Below are positions 4,858-30,812 of a stretch of 64,000 nt of DNA, piece by piece. Made by a program: the position numbers and the translations under genes. Source of the stretch: Octopus vulgaris (Eukaryota); contig OX597822.1 of assembly GCA_951406725.2 (NCBI GenBank), forward strand, positions 7,936,001-8,000,000, given 5' to 3'. Under the pieces are notes generated by a model. The model had not been told where the DNA came from, ran no database searches, and was given only the letters and a program-made list of their open reading frames with translations. Position 1 is the first letter of the stretch. The number at the start of each line of letters is the position of its first letter.

Positions 4858-5329
4858 TTGTATGAGTTCCAAATTAAAAATCTACAATATAGATTTCCAT
4901 TATTTCAACCGATCACATATTTCATAGATGATAACAATGTAATTCCTAAATATCAGAATAATCCGATCGTAATATTGGAAATTCATTGCCGAAATATATT
5001 TGTCCAAATCTGTTAAAGCACACAATCTATGGATACCTTCCCTTCTGTATCTTAAGTAATGTTAATATCTAGATCATATTTTGCCGGATTCTTAAAACAA
5101 CTGTTATTCTCAAAATAACTCCTGTATACATTCTCTGTAGAACTCATTGCACTCTTGTAATTAATATGGGCAAAAGAATACTTTGTGAATTATAAATTTC
5201 ATCAATAGTGTCATTGTTTAAGTTTTACCAAGCAGTGGCATTCACTTACATGTGAAATTTCGAAATCAGTAAAACGTAAGCGTATCCAACGTATACGAAA
5301 GGAAGGGTCATTTTACTTATGTTTGTTGT

Positions 5330-12781: not shown

Positions 12782-14139
12782 TTTATTTAAAGCAGCAGAA
12801 AATTCAACAAAATCTGTTACTCTGAGTTTCTCGTTGCCGTTCATCAGAGAGTTTTTGCTAGAATGGAACCGATACATCAATTCAATCCAGACTCTTACAA
12901 ACGCTATATCTTTTTAAAAAATGGACTTGTTTGATTGGCCCTTTAGAAATAACGGTCAATCTTCGAGCGATAAACAAAATGAGCTCAAAAATATATGTAT
13001 ATATATATAAAAAAAATTATAAAAATTATAAAATTCGAGGAAAAAACCTTACATTGAATAAAATACATATTGACGTTAATGAAGAAAATATAATTAATGC
13101 ATAGAAATTAAAACGCATTATAAATATTACACTGCAATACATATTTATATTAAAGTATACATATATATATCAACATACACAGAGGGATGCGTGCAAACGC
13201 CATACATATACAGACGTATAAATATAAATTTAAAATATACACACAAATGCATGCATACATATATGTACGCAATCTATCTCGCACGCAAGTTAAAATCATC
13301 GATGTAGCGTTTCTCATTTACGTAGTAAAGCTTAAGTAAGGGGGACGTAAAGTTGTACCAGTATCAGTTAGAGGGAAAAAAACGAAAGAAAGTAAGAGAG
13401 AGAAAAAGGAACGAAGAAGGGGGAAGGAAAAAAAGAAAAAGAAGGAGTGGGGAAAAAACGAAATAAGAGTAATTATGTATACAAGCTGTGTAACCGCGTT
13501 ATTGACATATATGGAGACAAGTATACAAATACACAAGTTCGAATGGATACATACACACACAGCCGTGTATGTGTGTGCTTAAGCACAAACATACGCTCAC
13601 TTATACATACACAGAGACGCATACTTACAAACACATATTCATGGCTATACACATATTTATATCAAAATTCTAAGTTTTGACAACATTGCTTTTTAAAAAA
13701 GGTGAGTGCAATAATGAAAAATATACGAAAGACATAAAATATAACACTCTATTTTGGATCATCTATAAATTAAAAATCAAGGTAATCCTATACAATACAA
13801 TAACATGAAATAAACAAAGCCGAAGGTTTTTGCTAATGTATATGTAGAAATATAAGACTTTGCTATACGGAATGAAATCTGCATAGCGCGAAACAAATCC
13901 ATCGTCGCGTTTACATACTAGTTCAAGAGTCAAAATCAAAATTTGAAAAATCAAAAATACAAAATATATACTCTATCCATATGGTATATTTATATTTGAC
14001 ATTTTAAATTTGGTTGCGTGTCTACATAAGTTCATTAGCTCATTTCTTTGATTCAAAGAATTATTGTCTTTGAATAAAATATTCAGTTTTTCTAATAGGC
14101 AAAGCTTTAATTTAAAATTATTTCTGTGTGCTCCATGCC
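12781..14139 (-). repeat. PLE direct repeat, downstream copy (EN C-terminus + pseudo-LTR)
   Basis: ctttatttaaagcagcagaaaattc...tgtgtgctccatgc is repeated at 16246-17614. Confidence 0.93.
12814..12851 (-). ncRNA. Minimal type-I hammerhead ribozyme motif in pseudo-LTR
   Basis: CTCT-CTGATGA-ACGGCAACGA-GAAA-CTCAGAG-TA-ACAG; one stem-I mismatch relative to the 16279 copy. Confidence 0.65.
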
Positions 14140-16107
14140 TGTATGGTGCCGCTCTGTCCAGAATACTCCATGTCACGTTGAAAGGTGGGGTTTCTTTTTC
14201 TTTTAGTTCCCAGACATATTTTGCTAGGCTGGTCCTCTTCCTATTCTCTGGGTATTTAAATGAATTTTTATGTGAATAAAATTGTGTTTTAAATGAATTT
14301 TCTGAAGCCCCTGTGTATGTCTTGTATTCCGATGAGCCTTCTATTTGCACCTTTGCTCTATAAACTACTCCTTTCACTAGACATTCCCCTTCTAACGGAC
14401 AGGAGTTTTCGTTTTTGAAATTGCATTTCTTAATGGGCTCGGCACCATGTCTAATCTCAATCAGATTCCTATTATGCTGGCTAATGTAAGAGGCGAAATT
14501 TCTGCAACAAGAATAGCTAACCTTCAGGGTTCTTCTATTAAATATCCTATAGAATTTATACCCTGCTTAAAATGCTTAGAGACTAATCTCAAAAATTCCT
14601 TACCTATATTAGTCTTTACGGCCAAATTGAAAGCCGGGTTGAACCACAAAACTTTCCTGGTCCTAGTTCTTCGTGCAGCATTATTATCAGCATTAAGCTA
14701 GCTGTAATGGATCTTCTCAGAGAATCCACTATTCTTTAATGCGCTATCGTAATAAGGTGCAGCATTATGGAAAGCTGCCTCGTCCGAAGAAATTGAAGAT
14801 ATTCTTCTACCTACATTGCTGACTAAGTTCCTAAGGATAACTGGTGGATGGTTCGAATCTTTGCTAATATACGATAGCTTTTCATTGGGCTTACGGAAAA
14901 GTTTAAATCTATCCGACCTTACATTAAAATTTACGTCTAAAAAATCTACACTATTCAGGTTAGCATCTATTGTAACCCGTAAGCCCATCCTTTGAAAGAA
15001 AGCAATAAGGTCCTTCCTAAGTCTATCTGATTCATGGCTGTTTAGATTATGCGTGGCTATAAGGCCGTCATCCCTATATAAACCTGCATCTATAAATGGG
15101 AATTATATTTTTAGATTATGGAGAATAAAGGCTCCTATGAGCATATATAACTCAGCTTCGTCGTATGTCCCCATCGGTACATCGAAAAGAGAATCCTCAG
15201 TCTCCTTAATCCAGGTGGAATCCTCGAAAAAAAGAAGCGATTTCCTCGCATGCATAATAATATCAATTTCCGAGCTACCGATGCTGACATACTGCTTGGC
15301 GAAGTCCAATGCCCTTAGGAGCAACGTCCTAGATATTGACGGGTAAAAGTCAATAATGTCGAATTGTGTGAAACTACAATTATTCTTATAGCTAATACAT
15401 TTAAACCACTCTATGACTGACTTACTATTCTTCCAAATTCTCAAGTCTACTTCACTATCTAACTTAGCTAAAATATGGTCCAAAATATGTTTGCTAATGA
15501 TTCCTATCTCAGTTTTAGCCGGATTTATCAATCTACATTTGGGGTTTCTATTAAAATTGGCTTTATGCTCTTTCAAGGTAATAAAAGCTGGTCGTGGTGA
15601 AAGATATTCAATCCTATCGCTAATCTTAAGATCGTTAGCTATTCCTCTTGCTTCTAGGTTCACCTCTTTGTATATATTCGTGTTATCTTTTTTGTGTGAA
15701 TCTGTGACACTATTCGAAATCAGGCGCTTATAAACGTCCTTATCAAGTGCATATAAGTTCCTTGTCTTATCAGAATTAATGAAGATCTTATTCGAGTTGT
15801 TAATCTCCTTAATTTTTTCTCTCATATTTCTCTGTAATTGGTTGGTATATTTGCGGAATTTAATTTTCCTAATAAGCTCGAAAAGGTCTTTCTCGCAGGC
15901 TTCTAATTCCGGAATAGGTGGCGGGTTTCTGGGAGATTTAAATCCATATTTGTTTCCGTCTATTTTCTGTTTAGTATCAAAGAAGAAGGCTTTCCATCTC
16001 AATCTTCGAATAAACGCTTCCGTTTTCTCTATAAGACCTTTGAGATATTGCTTCCGTGCAGGGATAGGTATATTTTTCTGAGAAAAATCCAGCGGGTAAA
16101 GTTCCAT
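13973..16107 (-). pseudogene. PLE reverse transcriptase / GIY-YIG endonuclease ORF, few lesions
   Basis: KNIPIP..RWKAFF, FDIIDFYPSI, PMGTYDEAE, AGLYRDDGL, DFLDVNF, SNHPP, WFNPAF, CNFKNENSCPLEGEC, VVYRA..YTGASE, LCLLEK, LCRHATKF. Frameshifts near 15103 and 14560; TAG at 14698-14700. Confidence 0.93.
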
Positions 16108-16245
16108 CTTTTTCAACTGTTTGTTCTTCCTACTTGTGCAGAGTCGCTGAAACTTTTATAAGGAGCGGGTTACACCGGTGTAAACACATAAATGTGAAAC
16201 AAGGTGGAAAAAAGAGTACTCAAATACCAGTGGTAGAGTAATATG

Positions 16246-17614
16246 CTTTATTTAAAGCAGCAGAAAATTCAACAAAATCTGTTACTCTGAGTTTCTCGTT
16301 ACCGTTCATCAGACAGTTTTTGCTAGAATGGAACCGATATATCAATTCAATCCAGGCTCTTACAAACGCTATACCTTTAAAAAAAAACAAATGGACTTGT
16401 TTGATTGGCCCTTTAGAAATAACGGTCAATCTTCGAGCGATAAAAAAAAATGAGCTCAAAATATATATATGTATATATATATATTAAAAAAATTATAAAA
16501 ATTATAAAATTCGAGGAAAAAACCTTACATTGAATAAAATACATATTGACGTTAATGAAGAAAATATAATTAATGCATAGAAATTAAAACGCATTATAAA
16601 TATTACACTGCAATACATATTCATATTAAAGTATACATATATATATCAACATACACAGAGGGATGCGTGCACACGCCATACATATACAGAGGTATAAATA
16701 TAAATCTAAAATATACACACAAATGCATGCATACATATATGTACGCAATCTATCTCGCACGCAAGTTAAAATCATCGATGTAGCGTTTCTCATTTACGTA
16801 GTAAAGCTTAAGTAAGGGGGACGTAAAGTTGTATCAGTATTAGTTAGAGAAAAAAAAACGAAAGAAAGTAAGAGAGAGAAAAGGGAACGAAGAAGGGGGA
16901 AGCAAAAAAGAAAAAGGAGGGGTGGGGAAAAAAACCAAATAAGAAAAATTATGTATACAAGCTGTGTAACCGCGTTATTGACATATATGGAGACAAGTAT
17001 ACAAATACACAAGTTCGAATGGATACATACACATACAGTCATGTATGTGTGTGCTTAAGCACAAACACACGATCACTTACACATACACAGAGACGCATGC
17101 TTACAAATACATATCCATGGCTATACACATTTATATCAAAATTCTAATTTTTGACAACATTGCTTTTAAAAAAAGGTGAGTGCAATAATGAAAAATATAC
17201 GAAAGACATATAAAATATAACACTCTATTTTGGATCATCTATAAATTAAAAATCAAGGTAATCCTATACAATACAATAACATGAAATAAACAAAGCCGAA
17301 GGTTTTTGCTAATGTATATGTAGAAATATGAGACTTTGCTATACGGAATGAAATCTGCATAGCGCGAAACAAATCCATTGTCGCGTTTACATACTAGTTC
17401 AAGTGTAAAAATCAAAATTTGAAAAATCAAAAATACAAAATATATACTCTATCCATATGGTATATTTATATTTGACATTTTAAATTTGGTTGCGTGTCTA
17501 CATAAGTTCATTAGCTCACTTCTTTGATTCAAAGAATTATTGTCTTTGAATAAAATATACAGTTTTTCTAATCGGCAAAGCTTTCATTTAAAATTATTTA
17601 TGTGTGCTCCATGC
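16246..17614 (-). repeat. PLE direct repeat, upstream copy (5'-truncated tandem unit)
   Basis: Near-identical to 12781-14139. Confidence 0.93.
16279..16316 (-). ncRNA. Minimal type-I hammerhead ribozyme motif in pseudo-LTR
   Basis: CTGT-CTGATGA-ACGGTAACGA-GAAA-CTC-A-GAG-TA-ACAG: stem I CTGT/ACAG, near-palindromic stem III, GUA cleavage triplet. Confidence 0.72.
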
Positions 17615-23109: not shown

Positions 23110-23495
23110 AAAGCAATCCGTCGGTAACGACGATGAGGGTTCCGGTTGATCCGAATCAACGGAACAGCCTGCTCGTGAAATTAATGTGTAAGTGGCTGAG
23201 CACTCCACAGGACGTGTACCCTTAACGTAGTTCTCGGGGATATTCAGCGTGACACAGAGAGTGACAAGGCCGGCCCCTTGAAATACAGGTACAACAGAAA
23301 CAGGAAGTAAGAGTGAGAGAAAGTTGTGGCGAAAGAGTACAGCAGGGATCACCACCATCCCCTGCCGGAGCCTCGTGGAGCTTTTTTAGGTGTTTTCGCT
23401 CAATAAGCACTCACAACGCCCGGTCTGGGAATCGAAACCGCGATCCTATGACCGCGAGTCCGCTGCCCTAACCACTGGGCCATTGCACCTCCACC
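23110..23495 (-). mobile_element. SINE family A, full length with TSD
   Basis: TSD cgatctcacaaata at 23088-23101 and 23496-23509. Confidence 0.92.
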
Positions 23496-23651: not shown

Positions 23652-24217
23652 TACGCTAGGCACAAGGCCCGAAATGTGGGTGCGGCAGTCGATTAGATCG
23701 ACCCCAGTACGCAAATGGTATTTAATTTATCGACCCTGATAAGAATGAAAGGTGAAGTCGGTCTCGGTGTAATTTGAACTCAGAATATAATACCGACGAA
23801 ATACCACTAAGCATTTTCGAAATACCTATGTCTTTACTACCCAAAAGGGGCTAAACACAGAGGGAACAAACAAGGACAGACAAACGGACTAAGTTGATTA
23901 TATCGACCCTAGTGCGTAACTGGTACTTATTCAATCGACTCCGAAAGGATGAAAGGCAAAGTCGACCTCGGTGGAATTTGAACTTAGAACGTAGCGGCAG
24001 ACAAAATACCTCTTTCTTTATTACACACAAGGGGCTAAACATAGAGGGGACAAACAAGGACAGACATAGGTATTAAGTCGATATCATCGATCCCAGTGCG
24101 TAACTGGTACTTAATTTATTGACCCCGAAAGGATGAAAGGCAAAGTCGACCTCGGCAGAAACGAACTCACAGAAACGTTAGCCCGGCCTGCTAACGTTTC
24201 TGCCAGCTCGCCGCCTT
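23652..24217 (-). mobile_element. SINE family C, three head-to-tail units
   Basis: Repeats of gcctttcatcctttcggggtcgataaattaagtaccagttacgcactggg (minus strand; resembles the Meta-type SINE core). Head GGCGGCGAGCTGGCAGAAACGTTAGC at 24217. Confidence 0.82.
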
Positions 24218-26252: not shown

Positions 26253-27865
26253 CAAGGTAATTCAGATCCGCTCTGCATGAGGTGTGATAATTTCATGAAT
26301 TTATAACTGTCGAAAGTTAAAATTCCAGAAAAGAGCAGAGGGTATAATTTTTTTTTATATAAAAGTATAAGCGGACAGTGGTGAATACGTTTTTCTAGCT
26401 TCACATCCGTCATCAGTGGGGCCTTTTTCTGATATCTCTCAGATAATATGTTGAACTTGTTCTTAATAGCATTTCAGCTTTAGGAAATTCTATTATCTCA
26501 TCTCATTGCTAGTTTCAAATGTGATTTGGTCATAACGTCTTATGTCCTTAGGCGGAGATAATTGTAGTAAATTAAATCTTGTATTGGATGTAATATGGTA
26601 CAATTGTATTCATTTATGGTGTCTATGCCACTCGCCTCGCTACCATGAGTTTTTTCTCTTCATTCTTCTTCGTTTCATGTGTGCAAGTTATAAATGTGCT
26701 TTACTTCTTCAATATTCGTTTAGTTTGGTTGGCTACCGGATATAAGAATGGACAATTATAGTACTAAGATGATTATTGTGCCAGAATCACTGTAACTTGT
26801 CTCCAAAGAATGAGCCAGAATCGTTGTCCCCTTGCCTCCAAACAAAGAGTCAGTTTTTTTGCTTAATGCCAAAACAACTTCGGAGAATGCTTGATCCAAC
26901 TATTCTGTTTTCAATTCAAGCTGGAGTTAATTGCTAAGTCGTAAATATTACACATCTTCTAGAGGCGGAAATAACATTGAAAGAATGCAACTGAATGACA
27001 TGCTGGTTTTATGGAAGGAAGTCTATGGCGGCCATGCCTCACTATTTCTGCACCGCTGAATCTATGCGTGCTCTTACACAGAAGAGCATAGGCAAAAATT
27101 CAGGAATATTATGCGGCGGAAGGGGGTAAGAAGAAGTAGTAGATACAAAATATTATGAATGGAATTATGAATGGTAAGAACAATAGTTGCAAAGAACAAC
27201 AAAAATTACATCGACAACAACAACAACAGCAACAAAAGCAGCAGCAACAACGAAAGCAACAGTGAACATATTACTAATCTTTTCTGCAATCGACCTGAAA
27301 TTTGGTTAGAGGGATCTAATCGATAACATCAACCCAAGTACTCGGTAGATTTCTAATTTTACAAATCCTGAAAGGAAGAAAAGCAATGCTAACCTGATTG
27401 GAATTTGCACTCATAAGGTAACAATGGACGGAATGCAGACTTAGAAATAATAATAACACTAAATATACAAAATAACGCAGTCCTATATTTAACAGATGAG
27501 CAATTATGTACATTATTTACACAATTTACATATGACGATATTTGTCCTCATCTTGTTTGTTGTTAACACATTTCGGATGGTATACCCTCCAGCCTTCATC
27601 AGGTGTCTTGGGTAAATTTCGAACCTGGGTTCTCATTCCTAAGGTTATCTTTCGATGAAGGACACCTCCCCTTGTGGGATGAAGTTATAATAATAGACAC
27701 AGCACACTATTGGAAAATACGGAAACTAAAAGAAGCAGCACATATGCTAGGACACAACAACCTCCTAGGCAGACCGAATGCAGATATGAATAGCATATGG
27801 GAACCCGTATTAAGGAAGGACAGAAAGATATAAGATTTATAAGCCATAAAATTCACTCTAGAATT

Positions 27866-27942
27866 GCCCACCGGCATATGGCGTAATAGTTAACAGTGTG
27901 GGTTACTAACACCAAGATTCCGAGTTCGATGCCAGGCAGTGA

Positions 27943-27946
<4 letters not shown>
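27866..27946 (+). promoter_or_regulatory. tRNA-like segment with Pol III A/B boxes inside the PLE 3' region
   Basis: TGGCGTAATAGTTAA (A-box-like) and GAGTTCGATGCC (B-box-like) at tRNA spacing. Confidence 0.6.
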
Positions 27947-28006
<60 letters not shown>

Positions 28007-28015
28007 TACTCCAAG

Positions 28016-28059
28016 ACACCTGATGAAGGCTGGAGGGTATATCAATCGAAACGTTGTGT
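28016..28059 (+). ncRNA. Type-I hammerhead ribozyme motif (inverted copy at 27566-27606)
   Basis: ACAC-CTGATGA-A-GGCTG-GAGGGTATAT-CAATC-GAAA-CG-TT-GTGT. Confidence 0.72.
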
Positions 28060-28612
28060 TCACAACAAACAAGATGGGGACAAATATCCGTCAAATATAG
28101 ATTATGTATTCAAAATAACGGTTATCTTTTGTACGTTCCTTCCGTAAATGGCAGTGAAAGCTCTGCGCAATGGGCTGTCAGGAGACATGATGTATAGTTT
28201 CGTAATATACTAAATTTACAAATGTGAATGTTGCTTAAAAACCGTGATTATACATTTAATAATACTTTGTGAATTCCGGCGTATATTTTAATGCTCACTA
28301 CACACTCACACATACACACACATGCATTATTCTTTGCGTGCGTATGTATGTATTGGCATAAATATAAAACAGCCAAAGATTCTTTGAAGCGACTCTCTGT
28401 ATATTGAAGTAAAAGATCACAATGAATATATAATAATGAAAGGAAAGTTTTAAATGAGTTTCAAGTCTAACCACAATTCCATTCGACAAACATTTTCACG
28501 AAGCCAAATAACCGTAGCTACGTTACTCCCAATGCTTTCATCTAAATAATGCATGCATACATGTATACCTGCCTACCTAAATTTTTTTGTCCCCTTGCTT
28601 TTTTTCTGTGTA

Positions 28613-29860: not shown

Positions 29861-30435
29861 TGATTGAATCACTGGAATTCCCAATCTAAGCGCGTTTTAC
29901 TTATTACCAGTTGTCGATATATAAGGCACAACCTATATCTCTTAACTGATTTAATAAGAAATAATACTAGATGCCTTATTTATTGCGTTGCATAAATAGT
30001 AAACTGATGAATGATGGTAGAAAAATATCGTCTGATCGTATCATGGTCATGAAGATTTTTGTGGTTTATGAAATAATACATATGCAATATATTGTCTTCC
30101 CGGTGCCTTTAGGCACTCACTTGATATGGTAATCTAATGGCTAAACCTCCAATGAAAATATTTATACTGCTCTCATTAAGCTGAAATTGTGCATTGATTG
30201 TTTCAGACTTTGATCTACTATATATGACCCAAAAGATAATTTTAAAATATCTAATCACTGGGTGATCAGAACTGACCTGGCGATAAATAACAATAATTTC
30301 TTGTTCATGCAGAAACAAGTATTAATCGAATATTTAAAATGGCCGGGTATGCTCGTACGTCTCTATCTGAAGCTATCTAGTTGAAACCAATCCGGCAATT
30401 GTAGCAATTTAAACAAAAGATATTATACGGATCGT

Positions 30436-30812
30436 GGAGGCGCAATGGCCCAGTGGTTAGGGCAGCGGACTCGCGGTCGTAGGTTTCGATTCCCAGACCA
30501 GGCGTTGTGAGTATTCATTGAGCGAAAACACCTAAAGCTCCACGATGCTCCGGCAGGGGATGGTGGCGATCCCTGCTGTACTCTTTCACCACAACTTTCT
30601 CTCACTCTTACTTCCTGTTTCTGTTGTACCTGTATTTCAAGGGGGCCGGCCTTGTCACTCTCTGTGTCACGCTGAATATCCCCGAGAACTACGTTAAGGG
30701 TGCATGTGTCTGTGGAGTGCTCAGCCACTTTCACGTTAATTTCACGAGCAGGCTGTTCCGTTGATTCGGATCAACCGGAACCCTTGTCGTCGTAACCGAC
30801 GGAGTGCTTCCA
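30436..30812 (+). mobile_element. SINE family A, full length with TSD
   Basis: TSD attatacgga at 30422-30431 and 30814-30823. Confidence 0.92.

Follow-up and report, generated by a model that had tools for sequence, protein, structure and literature searches.

A tRNA-derived segment in the terminal repeat of an abundant Penelope-like retrotransposon of Octopus vulgaris, a candidate Pol III promoter

The insertion described here, at positions 27478-28110 of the window (the whole 64,000-nucleotide stretch of Octopus vulgaris DNA that was analysed), belongs to an abundant, protein-coding Penelope-like retrotransposon (PLE) with a tRNA-derived segment in its terminal repeat, of which it is a truncated copy. 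This segment, which we call the head, is fixed in the PLE family and is part of its pseudo-LTR (pLTR). Judging from sequence, we regard as evenly balanced the proposal that the head acts as a Pol III promoter which drives the RNA of the element, ORF included, and that internal priming on this RNA yields both SINE-like and ORF-containing copies. More tentatively, and somewhat short of that balance, we put forward the fuller account of an autonomous PLE served end to end by Pol III: a captured tRNA-Arg-like promoter would have replaced the Pol II promoter of the pLTR, T4 runs would have been purged from the 2.5-kb ORF, an uncapped RNA would be translated from its (AAU/AAC)n leader, and thousands of SINE-like copies would have arisen by internal priming, a direct route to SINE- or Sm-alpha-like elements.

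Anatomy of the insertion

The insertion is framed by perfect 10-bp target-site duplications (TSDs), the left copy at 27468-27477 (+) being identical to the right copy at 28111-28120 (+), which indicates that everything between them entered as a single event: inverted arm, endonuclease remnant, head, (AAT)n, hammerhead and tail. The inverted, 5'-truncated arm occupies 27478-27658 on the minus strand (86% identity over 103 nt, E 1e-27) and consists of segment X (27612-27658), a decayed hammerhead ribozyme (HHR) with its core from 27602, and the long form of the PLE tail. On the plus strand it is followed by the 57 C-terminal codons of a GIY-YIG endonuclease (EN; 27660-27833), by a TATA-like octamer, so called on its sequence, which overlaps the normal stop codon of the family about 30 nt before the head (27836-27843), and by the head itself (27866-27946), with an A box at 27879-27889 and a B box at 27922-27933. 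An (AAT)n/(AAC)n spacer of a length that varies within the family (27947-28008) leads, across a deletion of segment X in this copy, to a predicted minimal type I HHR with core and stems (28015-28060) and to the short PLE tail (28061-28110), which in tandem copies encodes the N-terminus of the ORF.

All the parts named in a previous sequence-only reading of this DNA (EN end, head with A and B boxes, (AAT)n, HHR and inverted HHR arm) were found in the window, some of them with a different meaning. The EN stop that it placed at 27833 exists as a TAA at 27831-27833, but it is premature and private to the window copy; other copies continue to ...ILDL and stop three codons later, at the codon matching 27840-27842. 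The inverted arm, given as 27522-27611, was confirmed and reaches further, to 27478, with the TSD flanking the whole unit. The additional 45 bp or so of the left arm (27612-27658) are present too, but as the ordinary start-codon segment X, which the right arm of the window copy has lost by deletion. The second B-box-like motif proposed for this stretch was rejected, as it belongs to segment X, which normally separates (AAT)n from the HHR and holds the ATG of the ORF, and as it lacks the C with which a B box ends.

The insertion belongs to an abundant PLE family with a fixed order of parts

A 25-mer taken from the HHR matches the genome exactly at 5,025 places, against 0 for its reversed control, and the EN piece has 39 other matches at 89-93% DNA identity as well as 1,786 candidates. 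Longer copies reach a GIY-YIG-type motif, which was recognised by eye while a Pfam search gave no match for the EN, and a reverse transcriptase (RT) domain (RVT_1, E 1e-9) whose homologs carry PF00078/PF26215. Long copies are 92-95% identical to the column majority and their reading frames have decayed, which indicates that the amplification burst is old. The majority sense strand measures 2,826 nt and has an RT-EN frame of 838 codons, which begins at an ATG in segment X, upstream of the HHR, and passes through HHR and tail; in natural tandem copies the tail joins directly onto the ORF, and one near-complete copy with the order pLTR-ORF-pLTR was found (L310). The length variants common in this region preserve the frame, consisting of the loss of 3 nt at the HHR cut site and of 9-nt tail repeats (28048-28060, 27490-27530), as expected if the HHR and tail region codes.

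The protein of the family is 57-69% identical to 21 database proteins, and scans for the DNA of such relatives brought up no locus or distant ones only; a PDB search with the protein gave no match, and the Cys linker between RT and EN is absent from the RT-EN alignment. A single ORF with RT and C-terminal GIY-YIG, a partial-tandem pLTR, an inverted 5' copy, an optional tail and a minimal HHR are all present, as in EN+ PLEs. The family is a member of the EN+ PLEs and probably of the Penelope/Poseidon clade. The element also occurs in sequencing runs of six organisms, and when the octopus genome was searched with a distant homolog, the best matches included loci of this same family.

The usual order of parts is EN stop, a 25-nt spacer, head, (AAT/AAC)n, the 45-nt segment X, HHR and tail. 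The sequence-only reading had proposed to count how often head and HHR are linked, and the linkage is close to constant: among 29 other copies selected by their EN, the head follows the stop directly in 28 and an HHR lies within 640 nt in 23, and X or HHR lies within 640 nt downstream of the head in 28 of 29 head-selected copies. A one-off SINE insertion was therefore rejected, since the head is present in 28/29 EN-selected copies and has no TSD of its own.

Some loci depart from this order. The (AAT)n spacer is often interrupted by other repeats, as at L094, L095, L110, L120, L152, L215, L240 and L259, and the interrupters, several of them apparently from the same few families, suggest microsatellite-targeting elements. 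Short tandem arrays of head-containing units (L109:972-1636; L176; L211; L256) are local satellite-like amplifications of the pseudo-LTR.

Several other repeats share the window. A second near-full-length PLE, of another clade, lies at 12790-16900 on the minus strand; its direct pseudo-LTRs, about 650 bp long, agree at 96% identity and contain one compact HHR core apiece (at 16312 and 12847), and the element has a broken RT + GIY-YIG frame (16155-13975) and no B box. A further repeat, whose 5' end resembles a tRNA and whose body is conserved, has copies at 30425-30810 (+) and 23111-23384 (-) and is likely an ordinary SINE family; tandem copies of about 184-205 bp of another abundant repeat lie at 23687-24160 and 27318-27416.

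The head retains the boxes of a tRNA gene and has lost its fold

The likeness of the head to a tRNA gene is drawn from three observations: its A and B boxes stand in tRNA order and spacing, its best alignment among 30 sampled tRNA genes of 6 isotypes from the same genome is to tRNA-Arg(TCG/TCT), and one better-preserved copy scores 19.1 bits with RF00005, under the cut-off of 29. ARAGORN at default settings found no tRNA in the window, and an Rfam scan of 27400-28250 matched neither tRNA nor hammerhead; other Rfam scans, equally without a hammerhead match, returned only microsatellite-driven or chance matches. Three head copies that were folded showed no special stability and no cloverleaf (z +0.7 to +1.3), which, together with the missed Rfam cut-off, we count against the Pol III reading. 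A functional tRNA was rejected on the ARAGORN, Rfam and folding results, and the head looks like a DNA promoter whose RNA fold was lost, by analogy with Helenus and Ajax. It probably began as a tRNA retrocopy, or as a SINE head with an (AAT)n tail, that became fixed in the 3' UTR; no free-standing donor SINE was present among the 29 best head matches. The earlier suggestion of a PLE that captured a Pol III promoter stands in that the head is a candidate promoter, fixed, without its own TSD and coincident with the accumulation of 5' ends described below.

The 5' ends of copies accumulate at the first nucleotides of the head

The 5' ends were mapped in 119 loci for which the HHR region was the sole criterion of choice, similarity having supplied 29 of them and an exact pattern in contig order 90; after a length filter had dropped 6 short matches, this gave 198 arms. 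The head is reached by 102 arms, while 94 end before it, of which 45 stop in the body and 49 either stop in the microsatellite or are interrupted, and 2 were unclassified. Among the head-reaching arms, 15 end at head positions 26-81, 30 at 9-25 and 41 at 1-8, and 16 continue upstream; expressed per nucleotide, the rate of ending is 0.28% at 26-81, 2.4% at 9-25 and 12.4% at 1-8, falling to 0.26% over the next 50 nt upstream and 0.21% beyond. Thus 41 of the 57 arms that get to position 8 end within the first 8 nt, a count in which 10 ends scored at -7 to 0 were assigned to position 1, being fold-backs or chance matches of a single base.

We infer from this distribution that the base matching 27866 is likely the RNA 5' end for most templates; the A box follows this base at a distance of 13 nt, and the TATA-like motif precedes it by 30 nt. 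A start 13 nt before the A box is usual for tRNA-type promoters. The TATA-like motif at -30 would fit Pol II too and is counted against the Pol III reading. So is the make-up of a set of 30 copies chosen for the 5' end of the ORF and read by eye: only 2 of them start at the head and 3 extend through it out of a copy lying upstream, the majority being truncated at a nearer point.

The 3' ends lie at two tail sites and not at the predicted HHR cut

The predicted HHR is formed by stem I (28015-28019/28056-28060), the core CUGAUGA (28020-28026), an extra A, stem II (28028-28032/28043-28047) and GAAA (28048-28051), with the predicted cut after 28055 (GUU), that is, after body position 89. It is of the minimal type I: stem II is preceded by an unpaired base and stem III is palindromic, an architecture shared by the minimal HHRs of metazoan PLEs, which are predicted to be weak and to work as dimers (PMC4209133). 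Both HHRs of the window have decayed: the right arm has one mismatch in stem II, and the left arm is without 3 nt of the cleavage-site and stem III segment. A distant PLE on a metagenome contig (L301:118-2450; 30% protein identity) has a T-rich 3' UTR which contains a minimal HHR that is clean and has the same core with different paired stems; this PLE has no head.

The sequence-only reading had offered an HHR-defined 3' end, which the copies do not bear out. Among 121 arms from EN-, head- and RT-selected sets, none ends at body positions 85-93; the ends cluster at 138-149 and 170-173, which are two PLE tail sites 50-85 nt past the predicted cut. Retrozyme or Sm-alpha-type monomers with HHR-cut ends were rejected on this count. 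Of the 6 length-filtered arms, one ends at 84 and one at 99. Furthermore, 14 of the 30 copies chosen for the ORF 5' end cross the cut site, by eye, which indicates that uncleaved RNA was a common template. HHR cleavage would separate the ATG from the ORF and may serve as an off-switch for translation.

Two-arm insertions combine one long and one short tail in 56 of 65 cases, and 32 of the 65 show a TSD-like flanking match of at least 7 nt, against 4.7% in shuffled-pair controls. The PAc element of Anolis presents internal RT priming at two sites, needs no HHR cleavage for insertion and has an ORF that starts within the HHR (PMC11167929). The two tail sites, the pairing of long with short tails and the TSDs together indicate that the short copies are PLE-mobilised and are not HHR-bounded retrozyme monomers. 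Short and EN-linked copies share alleles, and no diagnostic substitution separates 101 copies that start at the head from 58 EN-linked ones; the short copies differ by truncation at positions 1-5, by a lower CpG decay that is possibly a selection bias, and at a few single positions. The separate SINE/retrozyme hybrid lineage of the sequence-only reading thus finds no diagnostic substitution in its favour, although a recent split would fit these data too.

Five loci (L273, L275, L276, L280 and L299, at about 1476-1760) run some 255-275 nt into the ORF past the tail before a pLTR piece restarts; in this sample, selected for the first 204 nt, the restarts possibly mark a third preferred end or a template jump.

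The sense strand is poor in Pol III terminators

The sense strand of 19 long copies (34.9 kb; the copies are related, and amount to one lineage rather than 19 independent tests) contains 16 T4 runs, each in at most 2 copies, compared with 75 expected from mononucleotide and 45 from dinucleotide shuffles. The 2,826-nt majority contains none, with 2.9 expected from synonymous-codon shuffles (P 0.033), so that per element the significance is marginal (P 0.03-0.05, one lineage). By comparison, 48 T4 runs occur in the 3,465-nt unit of the second, head-less PLE in this window, and nine distant PLE or RT loci have 4.5-8.4 per kb, all of these controls being richer in T (27-33% vs 22%) and none a close relative. 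The absence of T4 is suggestive, favouring the use of Pol III, but not decisive. In two RNA runs of a related organism, either strand is covered to the same depth and the reads pile up at no start or end site; these runs may be unstranded or reflect passive transcription, and they support neither side on Pol III.

Alternative explanations of the 5' ends and of the coding RNA

The accumulation of ends at the head could arise without any RNA end there, as a hot spot of fold-back or template switching at the palindrome that opens the head. This palindrome lies exactly at the 5' boundary of the head, which we count against the Pol III reading; when junctions were read by eye, about 18 of the 41 ends at positions 1-8 proved to be fold-backs on it, and the same 5' fold-back, with loose ends of this kind, appears in reads or contigs of two other organisms. 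Yet about 23 of the 41 join unrelated sequence, the head is not unusually structured, and comparable palindromes of 4-5 bp upstream (-639, -496, -328, -129) collect few ends, with 3 of 38 upstream ends within 10 nt of -639 and none near the rest, so that we consider a hot spot very unlikely. Only slightly less improbable in our view is that Pol II starts at the same site, by use of downstream elements or of the TATA-like motif at -30, and that the tRNA segment is an inert relic of an old SINE or tRNA retrocopy which became fixed in the UTR. The octamer at 27836-27843, the decayed cloverleaf and the Drosophila Penelope pLTR, whose promoter is internal and TATA-less with a DPE and which also contains an intron (PMC2377424), speak for it, but it leaves the absence of T4 unexplained, the start coincides with that expected of Pol III for intact and correctly ordered A and B boxes, and no spliced junction was found among the best 15 of 259 RNA-read joints.

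A division of labour between two polymerases deserves more weight, although we still think it unlikely. Pol III would make only short head-to-tail RNAs, the equivalent of a PLE-mobilised SINE, and the coding RNA would come from Pol II read-through or another promoter, which accounts for the 5' accumulation without the translation of an uncapped RNA. Longer precursors do exist, since 16 of the 57 arms pass the head and some copies have the order EN-pLTR-ORF, and the schistosome Pol III SINE-like HHR repeats provide a precedent (PMC6765202). Against it, the T4-free 2.5-kb ORF is left to chance (P ~0.03), the short copies carry none of the diagnostic substitutions that a lineage of their own would have (58 EN-linked vs 101 head-start copies), and tandem read-through is equally expected of Pol III on a T4-free unit.

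A proposed route from one RNA to two kinds of copies

The reading that we favour, Pol III transcription of the whole element, starts from the observed anatomy, linkage, 5'- and 3'-end distributions, TSDs and T4 counts, and supplies the RNA 5' end, the identity of the polymerase and the translation of an uncapped RNA as inferences. From a partial tandem, Pol III would transcribe the head, (AAT)n, the start codon, the HHR and the T4-free ORF of 838 codons before entering the following pseudo-LTR. Reverse transcription would then be primed internally by the PLE protein, at one or other of the two tail sites: a start in the upstream repeat would yield the very common SINE-like copies of about 300 nt from head to tail, and a start in the downstream repeat the truncated copies that contain ORF sequence, such as that of the window. 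The HHR would lie inside the ORF without determining the ends of inserted copies. The A-rich (AAU/AAC)n leader might permit cap-independent translation, for which the leaders of plant viruses offer an analogy. Pol III RNA is uncapped and its translation is unexplained, which we count against the Pol III reading, and Pol III has been argued to be too weakly processive for autonomous elements (PMC10886601).

Comparison with known systems

The family resembles Penelope/Poseidon PLEs such as Penelope of D. virilis and PAc of Anolis in its single RT + C-terminal GIY-YIG ORF, partial tandems, inverted 5' arm, two tail lengths and minimal HHR overlapping the ORF start (PMC11167929, PMC4209133, PMC8557442). 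It departs from D. virilis Penelope, whose pLTR has a TATA-less LINE-like promoter and an intron (PMC2377424), by its head with A and B boxes, its (AAT)n and its T4-free sense strand. In the literature searched we found no report of a tRNA-headed PLE, and the accessible text of PMC6962438, PMC13282606 and PMC3653858 has no description of this element; Repbase, Dfam, subscription journals and repeat-library supplements (e.g. that of PMC13282606) were outside the search and may list the family.

As in the schistosome Sm-alpha and Sj-alpha repeats, a Pol III-type promoter stands beside a hammerhead and the promoter of an upstream unit would transcribe the next one (PMC6765202), but those repeats are non-coding, with a monomer set by HHR cleavage, whereas here the module belongs to an autonomous PLE and copies end where RT priming took place. 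Non-LTR retrozymes are likewise short, non-coding, pLTR-related HHR units proposed to be PLE-mobilised (bioRxiv 10.64898/2026.07.22.740005, the main text of which does not contain the word tRNA); they form HHR-to-HHR tandem monomers, in contrast to our dispersed copies, which extend from head to tail site, often as inverted pairs with TSDs. TRIMp3 elements (Cassandra, Helenus, Ajax) also hold a small-RNA Pol III promoter within the terminal repeat, with the boxes kept and the fold lost, but they are non-autonomous LTR elements shorter than 1.3 kb, whose autonomous partners must use Pol II according to the Helenus/Ajax paper, while here the promoter-like segment is attached to an autonomous ORF (PMC10886601).

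Pol III promoters have been taken as the mark of non-autonomous, short non-coding elements such as SINEs and TRIMp3. An RT-EN element driven by Pol III, if true, would break the Pol II-only rule for autonomous elements, raise the question of cap-independent translation and offer a source from which repeats that combine a tRNA promoter with a hammerhead, Sm-alpha for example, could have arisen. R2 is co-transcribed by Pol I; it borrows the promoter of the rDNA and uses its ribozyme to form the 5' end, unlike the element described here. Should the Pol III reading be true, the two would nonetheless be alike as autonomous retroelements with a ribozyme-bearing RNA that is translated though not made by Pol II (PMC6765202). 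Whichever polymerase is used, the family constitutes a genomic primer-extension map of a PLE transcript, with its 5' end, two RT starts and an uncleaved HHR, and this map agrees with the in vitro results on PAc (PMC11167929).
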